Positions 1 through 5,026 of a stretch of 5,026 nt of DNA are shown in pieces (positions within the stretch are counted from its first letter, which is position 1; each line of letters opens with the position of its first letter). A program made the translations under genes and the position numbers. The notes beneath the pieces are model-generated. The model was not told the DNA's origin and did not search any database. It saw only the letters and a list, made by a program, of their open reading frames with translations. Origin of the DNA: a virus (lineage: Duplodnaviria; Heunggongvirae; Uroviricota; Caudoviricetes); IMG/VR virus record IMGVR_UViG_2690316149_000013, positions 1-5,026 of that record; one strand, written 5' to 3'.

Positions 1-1
1 C

Positions 2-898
2 CCCGGCTGGCGTCGTGACTGGAATCGTCAGGGCGACTCAATGACCGGAACGATTAATCAGGATGGCGGAAGCCAGAATGCCTATATGTCTACGGCCTTA
101 TGTTCAGGCACCAGAGGCGGCAAAAAATATCTCAGAAAGTTTCGTGGTGGAGAAGGAGACACTATCTGGCATGAAACAGTACAGGGCGGGGTAATTCGCT
201 GGGCGACAGGAAACTATGACGCTCAGGAAGAATTATCACTCAGCTCCGCTTATGGTCTCCGTTCAAGAGGTGAGATTACATCACTCAGTGCTAATGGTCT
301 GCGCATTGCTTATGGCAATTATGGATTCTTTATCAGGAATGATGGCGGCAGCACATATTTAATGCTGACGGCCTCTGGCGATAAATTTGGGACATGGAAC
401 GGCTTAAGACCGCTGACTATCAATAACGCCAATGGCGGAGTGTCAATGGGGCATGGCCTGAGTGTTACAGGTGATATTGTCTCAAGTACCAAAGTACGTG
501 CCGGTAGCGGGAAAAAGTTCACGGTCAGCAGCAGCAATACATCCACGAAGGAAGCCGCATTCAATTTGTGGGGAAACGCAAGTCGTCCGGTGGTGGCTGA
601 ATTAGGTGATGATGCAGGCTGGCATTTTTACAGTCAGAGAAATACAGATAACAGCATCACTTTTGCTGTTAACGGGCAGGTATCACCATCTAACTATGGC
701 AACTTTGATTCACGCTATGTCCGGGATATTAGACTTGGTGGAACAACATGGACGCATCAGGCTCCATCTGGTTGCGCATATACCGGGATTATCGTTCAGG
801 ATACAGGCTCAAACTCTGCCGATAATATTGGTGGTGTTTATTACAGACCAATTCAAAAAAATATTAATGGTACATGGTATAACGTATCGAGTGTTTGA
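2..898 (+). CDS. Tail fiber protein, C-terminal (distal, receptor-binding) portion; 5' end lies outside the window
   Basis: The reading frame is open from base 2 (PGWRRDWNRQGDS... precedes the first Met at 41) to the TGA at 896-898, so the Met at 41 is internal. The product is Gly/Ser/Thr/Asn-rich with Trp/Tyr, typical of fiber distal domains, and is immediately followed by a Tfa-family chaperone gene, the usual fiber-chaperone pairing. Confidence 0.8.
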   Translation, partial: PGWRRDWNRQGDSMTGTINQDGGSQNAYMSTALCSGTRGGKKYLRKFRGGEGDTIWHETVQGGVIRWATGNYDAQEELSLSSAYGLRSRGEITSLSANGLRIAYGNYGFFIRNDGGSTYLMLTASGDKFGTWNGLRPLTINNANGGVSMGHGLSVTGDIVSSTKVRAGSGKKFTVSSSNTSTKEAAFNLWGNASRPVVAELGDDAGWHFYSQRNTDNSITFAVNGQVSPSNYGNFDSRYVRDIRLGGTTWTHQAPSGCAYTGIIVQDTGSNSADNIGGVYYRPIQKNINGTWYNVSSV

Positions 899-900
899 TT

Positions 901-1434
901 ATGATGCATTTAAAAAATATAAAACCGGGCAATCCAAAAACAAAAGAACAGTACCTGTTAACTAAAAACTCCGGCGTTGTCTGGTTATTCGCTGAAGATG
1001 GTAAAAACTGGTATGAGGAACAAAAGAACTTTCAGCCAGACACCATAAAGATTGCATATGATGAAAATAATGTCATATGCGACGTGCAAACGGATGTAAC
1101 TGCAATTTGCCCGGAAGGAAAAAGTGTTGTCGAGTTGCCTAATATTACAGCAAACCGACGCGCTGATATTTCAGGTAACTGGATGTTTAAAGATGGCTCA
1201 GTCATTAAACGTGTGTATACCGAAGAAGAGCAACGCTTGCAGGCTGAAAACCAGAAACAAAGGTTATTACAGCAGGCCAGAGAAAAAACGCAGTTCTGGC
1301 AGACCCAGCTTGCATTAGGGATTATCAGTGATTCAGATAAGCAACAACTGATGCGCTGGATGCGGTACGTGCAACAAGTTGAGACCACTGATACCACTGA
1401 ATTACCCGTTACGTTCCCTGATCAACCAGAATAA
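901..1434 (+). CDS. tfa: Tail fiber assembly protein (Tfa family: lambda Tfa / Mu U / P2 G-like chaperone)
   Basis: Translation MMHLKNIKPGNPKTKEQY...NWYEEQKNFQPDT...ITANRRADISG.WMFKDG..IKR.YTEEEQR...LPVTFPDQPE matches, from memory, the N- and C-terminal signatures of enterobacterial Tfa proteins. The ORF track starts at a TTG at 895; the ATG at 901 (or 904) is the more likely start. It abuts the fiber gene stop (896-898) and ends at TAA 1432-1434. Confidence 0.85.
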   Translation: MMHLKNIKPGNPKTKEQYLLTKNSGVVWLFAEDGKNWYEEQKNFQPDTIKIAYDENNVICDVQTDVTAICPEGKSVVELPNITANRRADISGNWMFKDGSVIKRVYTEEEQRLQAENQKQRLLQQAREKTQFWQTQLALGIISDSDKQQLMRWMRYVQQVETTDTTELPVTFPDQPE

Positions 1435-1440
1435 ACGAAA

Positions 1441-1470
1441 GGCCCGAATATCGGGCCTTATCGTTATTTC
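1441..1470. terminator. Intrinsic terminator hairpin, probably bidirectional, between the convergent tfa and gpU-like genes
   Basis: Perfect 7-bp stem GGCCCGA (1441-1447) / TCGGGCC (1451-1457) with a 3-nt loop ATA, followed on the plus strand by the T-rich run TTATCGTTATTTCTGTTTATC. On the minus strand the same hairpin is followed by TTTCGTTTA. It lies 7 nt after the tfa stop and about 45 nt after the gpU-like stop. Confidence 0.7.
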
Positions 1471-1502
1471 TGTTTATCTAACTATTTGTGATTTGCGTTA
1501 AA

Positions 1503-1997
1503 TCAGAACAGTCCCTTAACAGAACTGACCGCACTGTTAAGGGATGACGCCACCTTATCTTTGAAGCCGGACAGCATATCGCTGAACGATGAGGATTGCA
1601 GGCGCTCCCGCAAATCCTCATCACAGCGTTCAAGGGTCAGTGAAAATTCTATCTTTTTCGCCTTACCGTAGCGATCAAACTCGGAACGGGTCGTATTCGT
1701 TTCAGTCAGCACATACATGCCGTAAATCTGCCCGACACCATCAATCAGAGGCCAGGGGCGTCCTGTATATGCCTGCGTGGTCAGCAACGAAAGCGACACT
1801 TCGCCACCTGTAATTTCAGGATAAAGCACGCCGGAAAGCACGATGCGATCATCACCTGCGCCGATATACTGCCAGCTTGCTGAACGGTTAACGCGTTCAT
1901 TTTTCACATGCCGCCAGCTTTTGTTTTGCTGTAACTGCTGATGCGGCAATGTGCGCAGCTCAAAAACAAACATGCCGTAGATCATCATCATGGCCAT
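1503..1997 (-). CDS. U: Phage tail protein, P2 gpU-like
   Basis: About 160 aa, placed directly downstream of the tape measure gene as in the P2 E-E'-T-U order, with an N-terminus M(A)MMMIYGMFVFELRTLPHQQLQ resembling the Met-rich hydrophobic gpU N-terminus as I recall it. The minus-strand GGAG at 2003-2000 sits 8 nt before the ATG at 1991, so the true start may be 1991 rather than 1997. Confidence 0.8.
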   Translation of the reverse strand: MAMMMIYGMFVFELRTLPHQQLQQNKSWRHVKNERVNRSASWQYIGAGDDRIVLSGVLYPEITGGEVSLSLLTTQAYTGRPWPLIDGVGQIYGMYVLTETNTTRSEFDRYGKAKKIEFSLTLERCDEDLRERLQSSSFSDMLSGFKDKVASSLNSAVSSVKGLF

Positions 1998-2003
1998 GAC
2001 TCC
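1998..2003 (-). promoter_or_regulatory. Shine-Dalgarno (GGAG) for the gpU-like gene, overlapping the tape measure stop codon (translational coupling)
   Basis: Minus strand reads TGA-GGAGTC-ATGGCCATGATGATG, so the tape measure stop at 2006-2004 overlaps a GGAG-containing stretch just upstream of a cluster of in-frame Met codons. Confidence 0.5.
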
Positions 2004-4853
2004 TCAATCTTTATCGTAAAAACTGCCACGCCCGGCACGGGCGCGCCGTTCCATTTCTGCCCTGACCATTTCGCCAACCAGTTTCGCTAGTTCGCGGGGA
2101 TTCTGTGTAACAACGTTATGCAGATGAACATGAATTTCACCGCCAAATCCGGAGGCAACAGGCTCCCGGTTACGGGAAGTTGCAGGAACTGATGCCACTG
2201 GCGATCGTATAGCCTCCGCCACCGGGCGGGAGCTGGCCGCAACAACAGGGACCAGCGCCGGAGGCAGCGGAGCCGGAACCACGGGTGTGATAGTAATTGC
2301 GGGGGCAGGCTTACTGACCTGCGCAATCTTCCGCTCCTGCCACTCCCCACGAACAGCAAGTGCGCGGGGCAGGTTCTTAAAGACAATATCGCCGGGGCCA
2401 ATGCGTTTTTTCGTCTCATCAACCAGCTTACCTGTGTTATCAGCAATTTTGCTGAGTCTGCGTAGCGTACCGGTATTGTTGTCTATGAGCGGTTTGTTGT
2501 CTCTGGGTTTATCGCCTTTTTTGTCGTCGACCTTATCTGACGGGGCCGGGCCGGGAGTCCATGGTTTCTGAACCATTTTCTTGAGAACCGGATCCCATTC
2601 CCACATTACAGGAGCCTTTGAAGCGTTCTCTATTTTCTTTCTCGCCCGTTCCGCTTCATCCGGAAGCACTCCGAGCTTTTCAAGTATCCACGCCAGTGAA
2701 TCCATCAATGCTTTTGTTGGCGTCAGGACAAGCTCTATCGCTCCACCGAGTACCCTGCCGAATACCTCGCCAGCACTGGTACATTTATCCAGCGTTTCCT
2801 TGCTGGACTCCATCGGTGACAGCAGCGATTTAAACCAGTTAAAGACCTGAATAATCCCATCGCGCACGACATCAAAAACTGGACCGAACCGTTCAAAGGT
2901 TTCGCGCAACGGAGCCAGCCGTTCCATAATCCCACTGAACACCCCTGCATAAAACGCCTTGATGGGTTCCCAGTATTTCCAGATGAGAACCGCCGCAGCC
3001 ACAAACGCAGCAGCAATCAATCCGACCGGGCTGAACAGCGCCCCGATAGCGCCCCCCAGTAACGAAACGGAACCCGTCACCATTCCCCATAGTGCTGGCA
3101 GGAGCCTGACAGCATTCATTGATCCGGTCAGGAGGGAAAAGCCAAGACGCAGTTTTGCCAGCGGGCCAGCAAGCACACCAATAGCCAACGACAACGAGCC
3201 GACCGTTGCAGTCATCGCCAGCAATGCCCCACCTGCAATCAGTAGCTGGCGCGTCAGTGCCGGATGGGCCTGCGCCAGCGCCGTCACCTTTGATACCACC
3301 CGCGTGAGCCACTGCGTGACAGAACGCAGCGGACCGTCAATCAGATCTGCAATGCGGATGCGCAACCCTTCCCATGCACTGCCGAGTGATTTCAGATCGC
3401 CGTCAAGGTTGTTGGCCATAACCTTTGCTGTGCGTTCAGCCTCACCGCGCGCGCCTTCAAGTTCTTTTCTCAGTTTGGGTAAGGAGCCGTCACCCGCTGC
3501 ATCAACGAGCGCCATAAACGATGTGAAAGCCTCTTCTCCGGCAATGTCCTTAAAGAACGATACCCGGTCAACTTCCCCGTATTTGCGGGTGGCTTTATAA
3601 AGGTCGGCCAGTACATCCTCCATCGGGCGCATTTTGCCGTTCGCGTCAGAGACAGCCACACCCAGCTCTTTCAGCGCCTCTGCTGCCGCCTTTGGCGGTG
3701 ATGCCAGACGAGCCAGGCTGGCACGCATTGCCGTCCCGGCATCACTCCCTCTGATGCCCATATTCGCCAGCACGCCCGCCATCGCAGCGGCCTGCTCCAG
3801 CGATATTCCCAGCTTACCCGCCACCGGACCTGCATATTTCATGGTTTCGCCCAGCGCGCGAAGGTCAGTGTTGGTACGGGTAAACGCCGCTGTAAGCGTG
3901 TCGCCAACCCGGTCCATCTGGTCAGCAGAAAGGCCGAACTGCGTCAGGATATTTGAGCCAATATCTGCCGTCTCGCCGAGATCCATACCGCCAGCCGTTG
4001 CCATGCTCAGCACTCCGGGAAGCGCAGCCTGAATGGCCTGCGGTGTGAAGCCTGCCATTGCAAGAAATGCCTGCCCACTGGCGGCATCGCCTGCAGTGAA
4101 CTGCGTTTCAGAGCCAAGTTTTAACGCCTGTTCACGCAGCGCCTTAAACTGCGGGCTGTTCTGGTCGATTCGCGTCAGTGCCTGAACGCGGGACATCTCT
4201 TTCCCGAACCCGATCGCAGGCTGCAAAAAACGCCCGGCAGCATAGCTGCCAGCCGCTGCCGCACCAATTGCCAGCGCACCACCTGTTTTCAGTTTTCCCG
4301 CGGTTTCCTGCGCGCGCGAATACCGCTCACGCGCACGTGTTACACGCGCAAGCGCCTGCCGTTCGCGTTCAAGCTGGTTGTTGTACTGTTCGGTGCGTCT
4401 GATGGCCTGCTGGATGGTGTTATCGCTGCCTGTCAGGGAAATGCCGTGGCGTTTCAGCTCTCCGCCAAGCTCCCGCATTTTCTGAATTTCCCGTGTGCGC
4501 GATTCATTCAGGCGTTCAAGCCGGGTGCTTAACTGCTGCATCAGCTTTTGTTGTTTTTCGCTGAGCACTGTACCCGTGCGTTGTAACTGATTAAGGGCGT
4601 TAAGCTGGCGTCGTGCTTTCAATATGCCAGCATCCGCTTTACCGACAGCGTCACGGGCGCGCTCAAATGAACGCGCCTGACGCTCGAGATTTTTGATCGC
4701 CCCCTGCGTTCGCTGGATGGAGTCACCAAACTGCCCCATCAGGCGGCGGGCGTTTTCGGCAGGCCGGGTCAGCCTGTCAACGGCGCTGAAAGCGACCCGG
4801 ATGTCAAGAGTCTTCATTGTCTGCATTCCCGCTGCGAAGTGCCGCCCGCTCAC
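2004..4853 (-). CDS. T: Phage tail tape measure protein (P2 gpT-like tail length determinant)
   Basis: A 949-codon ORF with a coiled-coil-like Arg/Gln/Glu/Leu-rich N-terminal third, a long Gly/Ala/Leu-rich hydrophobic block (…LLIAGGALLAMTATVGSLSLAIGVLAGPLAKL…GLIAAAFVAAAVLIWKYW) and a Pro/Val/Ala-rich C-terminal region, which is the usual tape measure architecture. It sits between an E'-like overlapping ORF and a gpU-like gene. The start is ambiguous: in-frame GTG at 4853, ATG at 4826 and ATG at 4817, the last with GGGA about 9 nt upstream. Confidence 0.85.
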   Translation of the reverse strand: MSGRHFAAGMQTMKTLDIRVAFSAVDRLTRPAENARRLMGQFGDSIQRTQGAIKNLERQARSFERARDAVGKADAGILKARRQLNALNQLQRTGTVLSEKQQKLMQQLSTRLERLNESRTREIQKMRELGGELKRHGISLTGSDNTIQQAIRRTEQYNNQLERERQALARVTRARERYSRAQETAGKLKTGGALAIGAAAAGSYAAGRFLQPAIGFGKEMSRVQALTRIDQNSPQFKALREQALKLGSETQFTAGDAASGQAFLAMAGFTPQAIQAALPGVLSMATAGGMDLGETADIGSNILTQFGLSADQMDRVGDTLTAAFTRTNTDLRALGETMKYAGPVAGKLGISLEQAAAMAGVLANMGIRGSDAGTAMRASLARLASPPKAAAEALKELGVAVSDANGKMRPMEDVLADLYKATRKYGEVDRVSFFKDIAGEEAFTSFMALVDAAGDGSLPKLRKELEGARGEAERTAKVMANNLDGDLKSLGSAWEGLRIRIADLIDGPLRSVTQWLTRVVSKVTALAQAHPALTRQLLIAGGALLAMTATVGSLSLAIGVLAGPLAKLRLGFSLLTGSMNAVRLLPALWGMVTGSVSLLGGAIGALFSPVGLIAAAFVAAAVLIWKYWEPIKAFYAGVFSGIMERLAPLRETFERFGPVFDVVRDGIIQVFNWFKSLLSPMESSKETLDKCTSAGEVFGRVLGGAIELVLTPTKALMDSLAWILEKLGVLPDEAERARKKIENASKAPVMWEWDPVLKKMVQKPWTPGPAPSDKVDDKKGDKPRDNKPLIDNNTGTLRRLSKIADNTGKLVDETKKRIGPGDIVFKNLPRALAVRGEWQERKIAQVSKPAPAITITPVVPAPLPPALVPVVAASSRPVAEAIRSPVASVPATSRNREPVASGFGGEIHVHLHNVVTQNPRELAKLVGEMVRAEMERRARAGRGSFYDKD

Positions 4854-5025
4854 GCCAGCTAACCACTTCGCCGGGCGTCATCATGAAGATTTCGGCGGGC
4901 GACCAGTTAAAAATGGCGGCGATATCTGCCACCAGATCTTCGATGTGCTCAAAGCACACCAGGGTGATTACGCTGCCGTCTCCTGCACGCTCTTCGCGCC
5001 AGAGTCTGGCTCGCTCATAAAATTT
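4804..5025 (-). CDS. Tail assembly chaperone frameshift extension (P2 E'-like / lambda GT-like), partial; 5' end outside the window
   Basis: A minus-strand frame is open from the window edge to the TGA at 4806-4804, giving …YERARLWREERAGDGSVITLVCFEHIEDLVADIAAIFNWSPAEIFMMTPGEVVSWRERAALRSGNADNEDS*. It overlaps the start of the tape measure gene and lies -1 relative to a second frame that is open at the edge, the geometry of the conserved two-frame tail chaperone upstream of tape measure genes. Confidence 0.5.
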   Translation of the reverse strand, partial: KFYERARLWREERAGDGSVITLVCFEHIEDLVADIAAIFNWSPAEIFMMTPGEVVSWRERAALRSGNADNEDS

Positions 5026-5026
5026 A
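4968..5026 (-). CDS. Possible C-terminus of the 0-frame tail assembly chaperone (P2 E-like / lambda G-like), partial
   Basis: The minus-strand frame +1 to the E'-like frame is open at the window edge and ends at the TAA at 4970-4968 (…NFMSEPDSGAKSVQETAA*). Only 19 codons are visible, so this rests on position alone. Confidence 0.3.
   Translation of the reverse strand, partial: NFMSEPDSGAKSVQETAA
5019..5025 (-). other. Candidate -1 programmed ribosomal frameshift heptamer A-AAU-UUU (X XXY YYZ form)
   Basis: The minus strand reads A AAT TTT at 5025-5019, with AAT and TTT as codons in the putative E frame; a -1 slip gives AAA TTT and continues into the E'-like frame. It lies 17 codons before the putative E-frame stop. 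It is at the very window edge, so the upstream context cannot be seen. Confidence 0.3.

Follow-up and report, generated by a model that had tools for sequence, protein, structure and literature searches.

Tail chaperone frameshifts in P2 and lambda and a proposed one in the locus studied

In the FETUD tail operon of phage P2, which contains E and E+E' (Christie et al. 2002, as summarised in PMC3091744), the annotation gives E+E' and gpE a common N-terminus and has E+E' arise by −1 frameshifting, through a slip on TTTTTTG (NC_001895; PMC3091744). No structure downstream of this site has been reported (PMC3091744). According to the summary in PMC5009743 of work on phage lambda (Levin et al. 1993; Xu et al. 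2004, 2013, 2014), G and GT likewise share an N-terminus, the −1 shift occurs near the end of the short open reading frame (ORF) and gives a fixed ratio of products, and the pair is flanked by the major tail gene and the tape measure gene. In both phages the short and the long product each bind the tape measure protein, recruitment of the tube protein is the task of the extension, and the frameshift fixes the ratio (PMC5009743, PMC3091744). Here we analysed a 5,026-nt stretch of viral DNA (positions 1 to 5,026 of IMG/VR record IMGVR_UViG_2690316149_000013; the whole stretch is called the window), whose minus strand carries the genes discussed. The window edge likely carries the 3' part of a tail assembly chaperone gene of the P2 gpE type, belonging to a P88-like (Xuanwuvirus) phage or prophage, with a shift into E' on the heptamer A_AAU_UUU. 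The logic and placement are those of lambda G/GT, although lambda is a siphovirus and its heptamer is G_GGA_AAG. To our knowledge, the P2 literature reports no sequence similarity to lambda G/GT.

The closest described system is that of P2. Both halves of the window's chaperone are homologous to P2 E and E', the pair lies in both cases between the tube gene (FII in P2) and the tape measure gene (T) with U following, the shift is in the −1 direction, and E' overlaps the start of T. The shift site falls at the same aligned Phe codon, with no evident downstream structure in either. The two systems differ in the heptamer itself, U_UUU_UUG in P2 (Phe codon in the P site, Leu in the A site) versus A_AAU_UUU in the window (Asn and Phe), which lies 3 nt upstream. 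They also differ in the length of E, 91 amino acids (aa) in P2 versus 124 aa in the window's relatives, which have an N-terminal extension, and in spacing, with 6 codons from the site to the E stop in P2 versus 16 here and a longer linker in the window between the site and the GpE domain. The features around the site are:

4968–5026, minus strand: 0 frame, 3' end of the gene for the E-like tail assembly chaperone (last 19 codons and TAA at 4970–4968)
5019–5025, minus strand: candidate −1 slippery heptamer A_AAU_UUU (P site, Asn AAU; A site, Phe UUU)
5016–5022, minus strand: position homologous to the P2 heptamer T_TTT_TTG; a change of TTG to ATG (Leu to Met) gives TTTTATG, which is not slippery
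4804–5019, minus strand: E' part, −1 frame after the predicted shift; first codon TAT at 5019–5017, stop TGA at 4806–4804
4825–4932, minus strand: Phage_P2_GpE domain (PF06528), residues 32–67 of the −1-frame translation, E=3.4e-12
4804–4959, minus strand: 51-aa ORF from GTG 4959, labelled 'GpE family phage tail protein' by RefSeq/PGAP

Two overlapping frames are homologous to P2 E and E'

The original prediction, made from the letters of the window, described two minus-strand frames open at the window edge, one ending at the TAA at 4970–4968 and the other, in the −1 frame, running to the TGA at 4806–4804, and all of these coordinates are correct. The 0-frame translation ends in NFMSEPDSGAKSVQETAA at the TAA, the −1 frame is open from 5025 over 73 codons, and the third minus-strand frame contains many stops. 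Only the last 19 codons of E lie within the window, and the remainder was taken from relatives that are ∼98% identical over 4300–5026. The 375-nt gene of these relatives ends at the window's TAA and starts with an ATG that lies 316 nt outside the window, so that in them the 0 frame forms a full ORF of 124 codons (121 in P88). It is therefore not closed just upstream of the window; a complete ORF had been anticipated, but its expected size of about 90 codons was too small.

The 124-aa E of Escherichia phage 520873 (L001, NC_049344.1; L numbers denote loci of the survey described below) is 35% identical to P2 gpE over 89 residues (BLASTP, E=3e-15). The Pfam family PF10109 (Phage_TAC_7) scores 20.7 bits on the 0-frame product, below the cutoff of 25 (E=4.4e-4), yet the homology to P2 gpE is clear in the pairwise comparison. 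The −1-frame product matches PF06528 with 46.1 bits against a cutoff of 23 and P2 E' with 48% identity (BLASTP, E=8e-17). A search of NCBIfam gave no match for either product. When joined to the E N-terminus of the relatives, the predicted E+E' fusion has 179 aa, with the predicted junction AVAVNF-YERARLW and, for the window type, the predicted junction peptide DFIQLCAVAVNFYER.

Positions 4300–5026 of the window are 95–98.6% identical in nucleotides to Xuanwuvirus phages (P88-like, Peduoviridae). The module is present in 1379 of 5426 complete Escherichia coli genomes, the closest of which is 98.1% identical to the window; no exact match was found among them. Phage records and E. coli chromosomes show the gene order sheath, tube, E (375 nt), E' (156 nt), tape measure and gpU, in which E and E' follow the tail tube gene and precede the tape measure gene. 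With the homologies to both P2 proteins, this order and the −1 relation seen across the family, the frameshift arrangement of tail assembly chaperone genes that had been proposed for the locus is supported.

A candidate slippery heptamer one codon upstream of the P2 site

The AAATTTT string at 5025–5019, singled out in the original prediction, sits in X_XXY_YYZ phase of the 0 frame and is the only in-phase motif of this form in the 103-nt overlap zone. As a string it is within chance (1 found versus 1.33 expected from shuffles of the window), and the case therefore rests on its phase, position and homology. In BLASTP and MAFFT alignments the window residues A-V-N-F-M-S align with V-V-G-F-L-S of P2, and the window heptamer therefore overlaps the annotated shift site of P2. 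The codons at the site are GGT TTT TTG in P2, GTA AAT TTT TTG in P88, L007 and a Salmonella prophage (L086), and GTA AAT TTT ATG in the window and many close relatives. The ten-base A_AAT_TTT_TTG of P88 thus holds both A_AAT_TTT and the P2 heptamer, and the predicted junction peptides of P88 differ according to the heptamer used (DFIQLCVVAVNFFER versus DFIQLCVVAVNFLER). Only A_AAT_TTT is left in the window because the change from TTG to ATG breaks the P2 heptamer. The possibility had been raised that homologues would place the shift elsewhere; the classical T_TTT_TTG does occupy a different position, but one only 3 nt downstream (5022–5016), and P88 carries both motifs.

P88 and the TTG-type Xuanwuvirus phages have the same genus-level module as the window, with 95% nucleotide identity over the region and an identical A_AAT_TTT. 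P88 differs in that it also keeps the P2 heptamer and in that a −1-frame stop upstream narrows its shift zone to 85 nt. The 16-mers with ATG and with TTG each occur on at least 120 IMG/VR contigs, and ∼110 of each belong to one tight haplotype among the matches listed. The ancestral T_TTT_TTG looks to have been lost in the window lineage through the change from TTG to ATG, with the A_AAU_UUU_UUG of P88 as an intermediate. It is fairly likely that the ATG lineage of Xuanwuvirus prophages represents a natural move of the site by one codon, in which U_UUU_UUG was joined by an overlapping A_AAU_UUU and the original was then lost, so that the tRNA pair is now Asn/Phe.

An independent family member in Klebsiella michiganensis DSM 25444 (L099, ∼1428–1440) reads CCT TTC TTG. 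Here too T_TTT_TTG is gone and only a motif of the form X_XXU_UUY is kept (C_CCT_TTC), at the same one-codon-upstream offset as the window motif and with Phe in the A site. The loss differs from that in the window lineage in that it came through a change from TTT to TTC in the Phe codon, not in the following codon. On the reading of a moved site, the change from C_CCU_UUU_UUG to C_CCU_UUC is an independent parallel.

A separate observation concerns the P2 record. Its join (19430..19685, 19685..19857; L004 2186) translates as GFLFAELG; a slip on T_TTT_TTG followed by GTC would give GFLVAELG. The annotated junction residue of P2 may be off by one base.

Constraint switches reading frame at the Phe codon of the heptamer

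We surveyed 80 loci from species-representative genomes with an E+E' alignment, together with L001, P88 (L002) and P2 (L004). Both parts were found in 82 loci. In 81 of these E' occupies the −1 frame with respect to E, and all 81 frameshift-type loci contain an in-phase X_XXY_YYZ heptamer within the overlap zone. The family tally is 71 TTTTTTG, 5 TTTTTTC and 5 TTTTTTA. A T_TTT_TTN motif is present in 79 of the 81; it is absent from L001, which is of the window type, and from L099.

For a 19-locus Xuanwuvirus-like subfamily we compared conservation in the two frames over 14 codons on each side of the conserved Phe codon. Upstream of this codon amino-acid identity is 0.57 in the 0 frame versus 0.31 in the −1 frame, and the −1 frame contains stops in 11 of the 19 loci, some just 5 codons away. 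Downstream the relation is reversed, with identities of 0.61 in the −1 frame versus 0.51 in the 0 frame. When nucleotide variability is split by codon phase, it follows the same course: position 3 of the 0 frame is the most variable upstream (0.51 versus 0.31 and 0.26), and position 3 of the −1 frame is the most variable in the overlap (0.38 versus 0.28 and 0.27). The frame under stronger constraint changes at a single Phe codon, from 0 to −1, and this is the codon that is part of the heptamer. A further profile of codon-phase variability, for the E' core anchored without gaps on the stop, was flat (0.43/0.41/0.44) and was discarded; C-terminal indels had probably misaligned it.

The junction is marked independently in L085, a locus from a Symbiopectobacterium sp. 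metagenome-assembled genome (1153–1665), where a 1-nt insertion ∼10–15 nt after TTTTTTG fuses both frames (TPFLAPGGAWRIERGGDGD). This could be a hard-wired E+E', a symbiont pseudogene or an assembly error. It is the only real in-frame fusion of E and E'. Three further loci (L005, L006 and L007) had appeared as natural in-frame fusions from a single-segment match to the fused query and were rejected, as each has a 1-nt indel, in E for L005 and L007 (the latter with a P88-type site) and in E' for L006. These indels are probably sequencing errors or pseudogenes.

Proposed mechanism

Most ribosomes would terminate at the TAA at 4970–4968 and yield the 124-aa E, while a minority would slip back one base on A_AAU_UUU (5025–5019), with tRNA-Asn re-pairing from AAU to AAA and tRNA-Phe from UUU to UUU. 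Shifted ribosomes would then read TAT GAG CGA and onwards in the −1 frame to the TGA at 4806–4804, giving an E+E' product of ∼179 aa with the junction VNF-YER and the conserved GpE domain as its C-terminal part. A slip of tRNA-Phe alone on U_UUU would yield the same protein as the tandem slip. As with E and E+E' of P2 and G and GT of lambda, both products would be expected to bind the tape measure protein encoded directly downstream, and a fixed low proportion of E+E', set by the slip, would be needed for tail assembly. What the sequences show directly is the homology of both frames to P2 E and E', the −1 relation of the frames, the lack of separate start signals, the change of constraint at the Phe codon and the phase of the heptamer; the slippage on this heptamer, its efficiency and the chaperone function are inferred.

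Heptamer strength, stimulators and the viability of the site

All 64 heptamers have been tested in an E. coli reporter by Sharma et al. 2014 (PMC4066793), who found H_HH.U_UU.Y among the best E. coli motifs. AAAUUUU gave 0.070% frameshifting with no stimulator, 0.355% with that of IS911 and 11.4% with the IS3 pseudoknot, compared with 0.118%, 0.247% and 0.765% for UUUUUUG, the P2 motif (PMC4066793 Table S3). The CCCUUUC of the K. michiganensis locus is one of the most efficient E. coli heptamers in this reporter (PMC4066793), with 0.193%, 1.39% and 23.2%, respectively (PMC4066793 Table S3). In-phase AAAUUUU is also strongly depleted in E. coli genes (z = −9.1; PMC4066793). AAAUUUU is no weaker than the P2 motif in the published E. 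coli reporter, and both are near background without a stimulator. The remark in the original prediction that the heptamer is not one of the classic efficient sites was, in view of the reporter data and the depletion of AAAUUUU, too pessimistic relative to the P2 motif.

A number of observations weigh against the proposed shift. Without a stimulator, the 0.070% of AAAUUUU is about the reporter background of 0.055 ± 0.031% (PMC4066793). A search for a downstream stimulatory structure, suggested along with the prediction, found folds that are no better than those of shuffled sequences (z-scores: window type, −1.0 and −0.6; P88, +1.5 and +1.2) and that differ between the two haplotypes, and no stable hairpin or pseudoknot of the IS3, IS911 or dnaX type was found starting 5–9 nt downstream of the heptamer. 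No element resembling a Shine-Dalgarno (SD) sequence, for which 6–17 nt upstream would be the expected place, was seen by eye within 18 nt upstream of the heptamer. Close relatives vary hardly at all across the whole region around the site, so their sharing of the heptamer is statistically uninformative. For the 316 nt of E beyond the window edge, the sequence used is that of relatives and not of the window's own source. The frameshift is annotated in the P2 record, whereas in the Xuanwuvirus records inspected, the window type included, it is unannotated and is a prediction from sequence. A phage with the window's site and reported plaques, Citrobacter phage phiSM, is also not a clean case, as described below.

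With regard to structure, the best local hairpin (−11.8 kcal/mol, at ∼5004–4980) begins 14 nt after the heptamer and has no counterpart in P88. A GCCAG-ACU-CUGGC hairpin seen by eye was rejected as it lies outside the minimum-energy fold of the 40-nt segment. The absence of an evident stimulator here matches the reported absence of downstream structure in P2 (PMC3091744).

One rival explanation is that the site has decayed, such that T_TTT_TTG was lost, little or no E+E' is made beyond background slippage, and the loss is tolerated or the prophages are defective. Besides the background-level reporter value of AAAUUUU and the lack of a downstream structure, it draws on the fact that some records are clearly defective: phage 520873, although a RefSeq 'phage', carries an IS100 (IS21-family) element in its tail sheath gene, which is annotated as two fragments (2009–3789), and is probably defective. 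The P2 motif is, however, also near background without a stimulator, at 0.118% (PMC4066793), and P2 has no reported downstream structure either. The ATG haplotype is stable, with an intact, conserved E' ORF across ∼110 genuine IMG/VR contigs among the matches listed, and the K. michiganensis locus has moved independently to C_CCU_UUC at the same offset. Decay of the site is unlikely.

Also against decay, phiSM (OR565851.1, L165) has exactly gta aat ttt atg agc at the site and is reported to form plaques and lysogens (PMC6456863); with the same site and plaque formation, it appears to build working tails with A_AAU_UUU as its only heptamer. The link between record and phenotype is not clean, because the paper describes the tails of phiSM as long and non-contractile (Siphoviridae) and those of phiNP as contractile (PMC6456863), and non-contractile tails do not fit a genome with sheath genes. 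The phiSM genome is P2/P88-like, with a tail tube gene and P2-type tail genes. The morphologies of phiSM and phiNP may have been swapped in the paper.

Other routes to E' are poorly supported by the family

Two further explanations, each very unlikely, place the origin of E' on either side of the heptamer. In one, the shift takes place upstream, on an A7 run (AUU AAA AAA AUG) ∼45 nt beyond the window edge, and the window heptamer is incidental. The −1 frame of L001 opens at the TAA inside gaTTAAAAAAAtg (4955–4961), so that a slip of the shift-prone tRNA-Lys on this run stays in frame through E', and A_AAA as a tetramer shifts weakly (0.26% when a pseudoknot is present; PMC4066793 Table S2). 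The run is not, however, an in-phase X_XXY_YYZ heptamer, and it is not the shared site, because P88, L086 and L007 have a −1-frame TGA between the run and AAATTTT. From the run to the Phe codon it is the 0 frame that is conserved and not the −1 frame, as given by the upstream identities above, with 0-frame position 3 the most variable. After a slip on the run, KNVVTRFYSVVRCGCK would also stand in place of the C-terminal segment of E, a conserved part that can be aligned to P2 E. Independently of this, the run might yield a minor alternative product in window-type relatives, IKK-NVVTRFYSVVRCGCKFYER (starting NVVTR), which is closed by the −1 stop in the P88 type.

In the other, there is no frameshift and E' is an independent small gene of 51 aa that starts at GTG 4959, as called by RefSeq/PGAP. 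The 'GpE family phage tail protein' label behind this explanation exists in the records inspected, and the GTG is present in both Xuanwuvirus haplotypes. The GTG has no SD motif 4–16 nt upstream; the nearest AGGAG ends 20 nt before it and is lost in P88. In 52 of the 75 family loci the −1 frame lacks any ATG, GTG or TTG on the way from the heptamer to the GpE motif, and an SD 4-mer before the E' domain was found in none of the 75. In the part of the overlap upstream of GTG 4959 the −1 frame is already the more constrained, and the P2 equivalent is annotated as a −1 frameshift product, an essential tail protein that shares its N-terminus with gpE (PMC3091744). The separate 51-aa 'GpE family' ORF is probably an annotation artefact of the unrecognised frameshift. 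The original prediction had left room for a long frame with its own start and a short frame lacking coding signal; instead the −1 frame has no credible start and the 0 frame has a clear coding signal.

Homopolymer runs can cause slippage of RNA polymerase as well, and the site is an A3T4 run (T6 in P88 and P2), but four T in a row are too few for transcriptional slippage to produce a shifted mRNA. This explanation is the least probable of all, as the P2 frameshift is annotated and described as translational, and the presence of an in-phase X_XXY_YYZ motif in every family member speaks against it because phase matters only for tRNA re-pairing. Both slippage mechanisms, transcriptional and ribosomal, are covered in PMC5009743.

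Annotation of the chaperone genes

The tail-chaperone frameshift of P2 and lambda has been known for decades, and the understanding of its mechanism is unchanged by the locus described here. What is new is modest: a predicted slip site one codon upstream, with a different tRNA pair, that is unannotated in the records inspected. A frameshift is annotated in none of the Xuanwuvirus-type records inspected; PGAP and RefSeq give E' as an ORF of its own with 51 aa, and the phiSM record has no call for it. A collection of ∼15 billion proteins does not contain the predicted 179-aa fusion, while E and the 51-aa ORF are each found there on ∼1000 or more contigs. With E' called as a 51-aa ORF or not at all, many annotations miss a probable functional product. 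The P88 paper does not mention frameshifting, and a literature search for AAATTTT as a slippery site of tail chaperones returned nothing relevant.

Annotation pipelines keyed to the P2 motif TTTTTTG would miss the ATG lineage. The two abundant alleles, ATG and TTG, form a natural pair for testing the effect of the heptamer on chaperone stoichiometry. If the proposed shift on A_AAU_UUU is correct, this pair could show how far the heptamer alone sets the ratio of E to E+E', with no stimulator evident.

Neighbouring tail genes and the fibre module

Two neighbouring genes complete the P2-type order:

2004–4817, minus strand: tail tape measure gene, conserved start ATG 4817 (MKTLDIR); PF10145 PhageMin_Tail, E=2.3e-58
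1503–1997, minus strand: gene for a gpU-like tail protein, following the tape measure gene; PF06995 Phage_P2_GpU, E=5.6e-39

The placement of the gpU-like gene gives the P2 order E-E'-T-U. The tape measure ORF is open from GTG 4853 (949 aa), and relatives conserve the start at ATG 4817. The end of E' (4804) overlaps this start by 14 nt, in line with the overlap of the −1 frame and the tape measure start that had been noticed from the window. Within the tape measure gene, a patch of ∼115 nt (2517–2632) could not be aligned by blastn to relatives that are otherwise 94–96% identical, which marks a segment that is locally variable or was replaced.

Homology to the Xuanwuvirus relatives stops at position 1492 of the window, 11 nt past the gpU stop. 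Beyond that point the relatives carry a DNA invertase gene and inverted alternate tail-fibre genes; the window instead has a convergent tail fibre gene (41–898) and a tail fibre assembly gene (895–1434). A GC-rich inverted repeat, GGCCCGAATATCGGGCC, lies between the fibre module and the gpU-like gene (1435–1502) and looks like a bidirectional terminator. The fibre part at positions 1–738 is ∼97% identical to Yersinia P2-like phages, and the tail-fibre module of the window looks like a mosaic that has no invertase.

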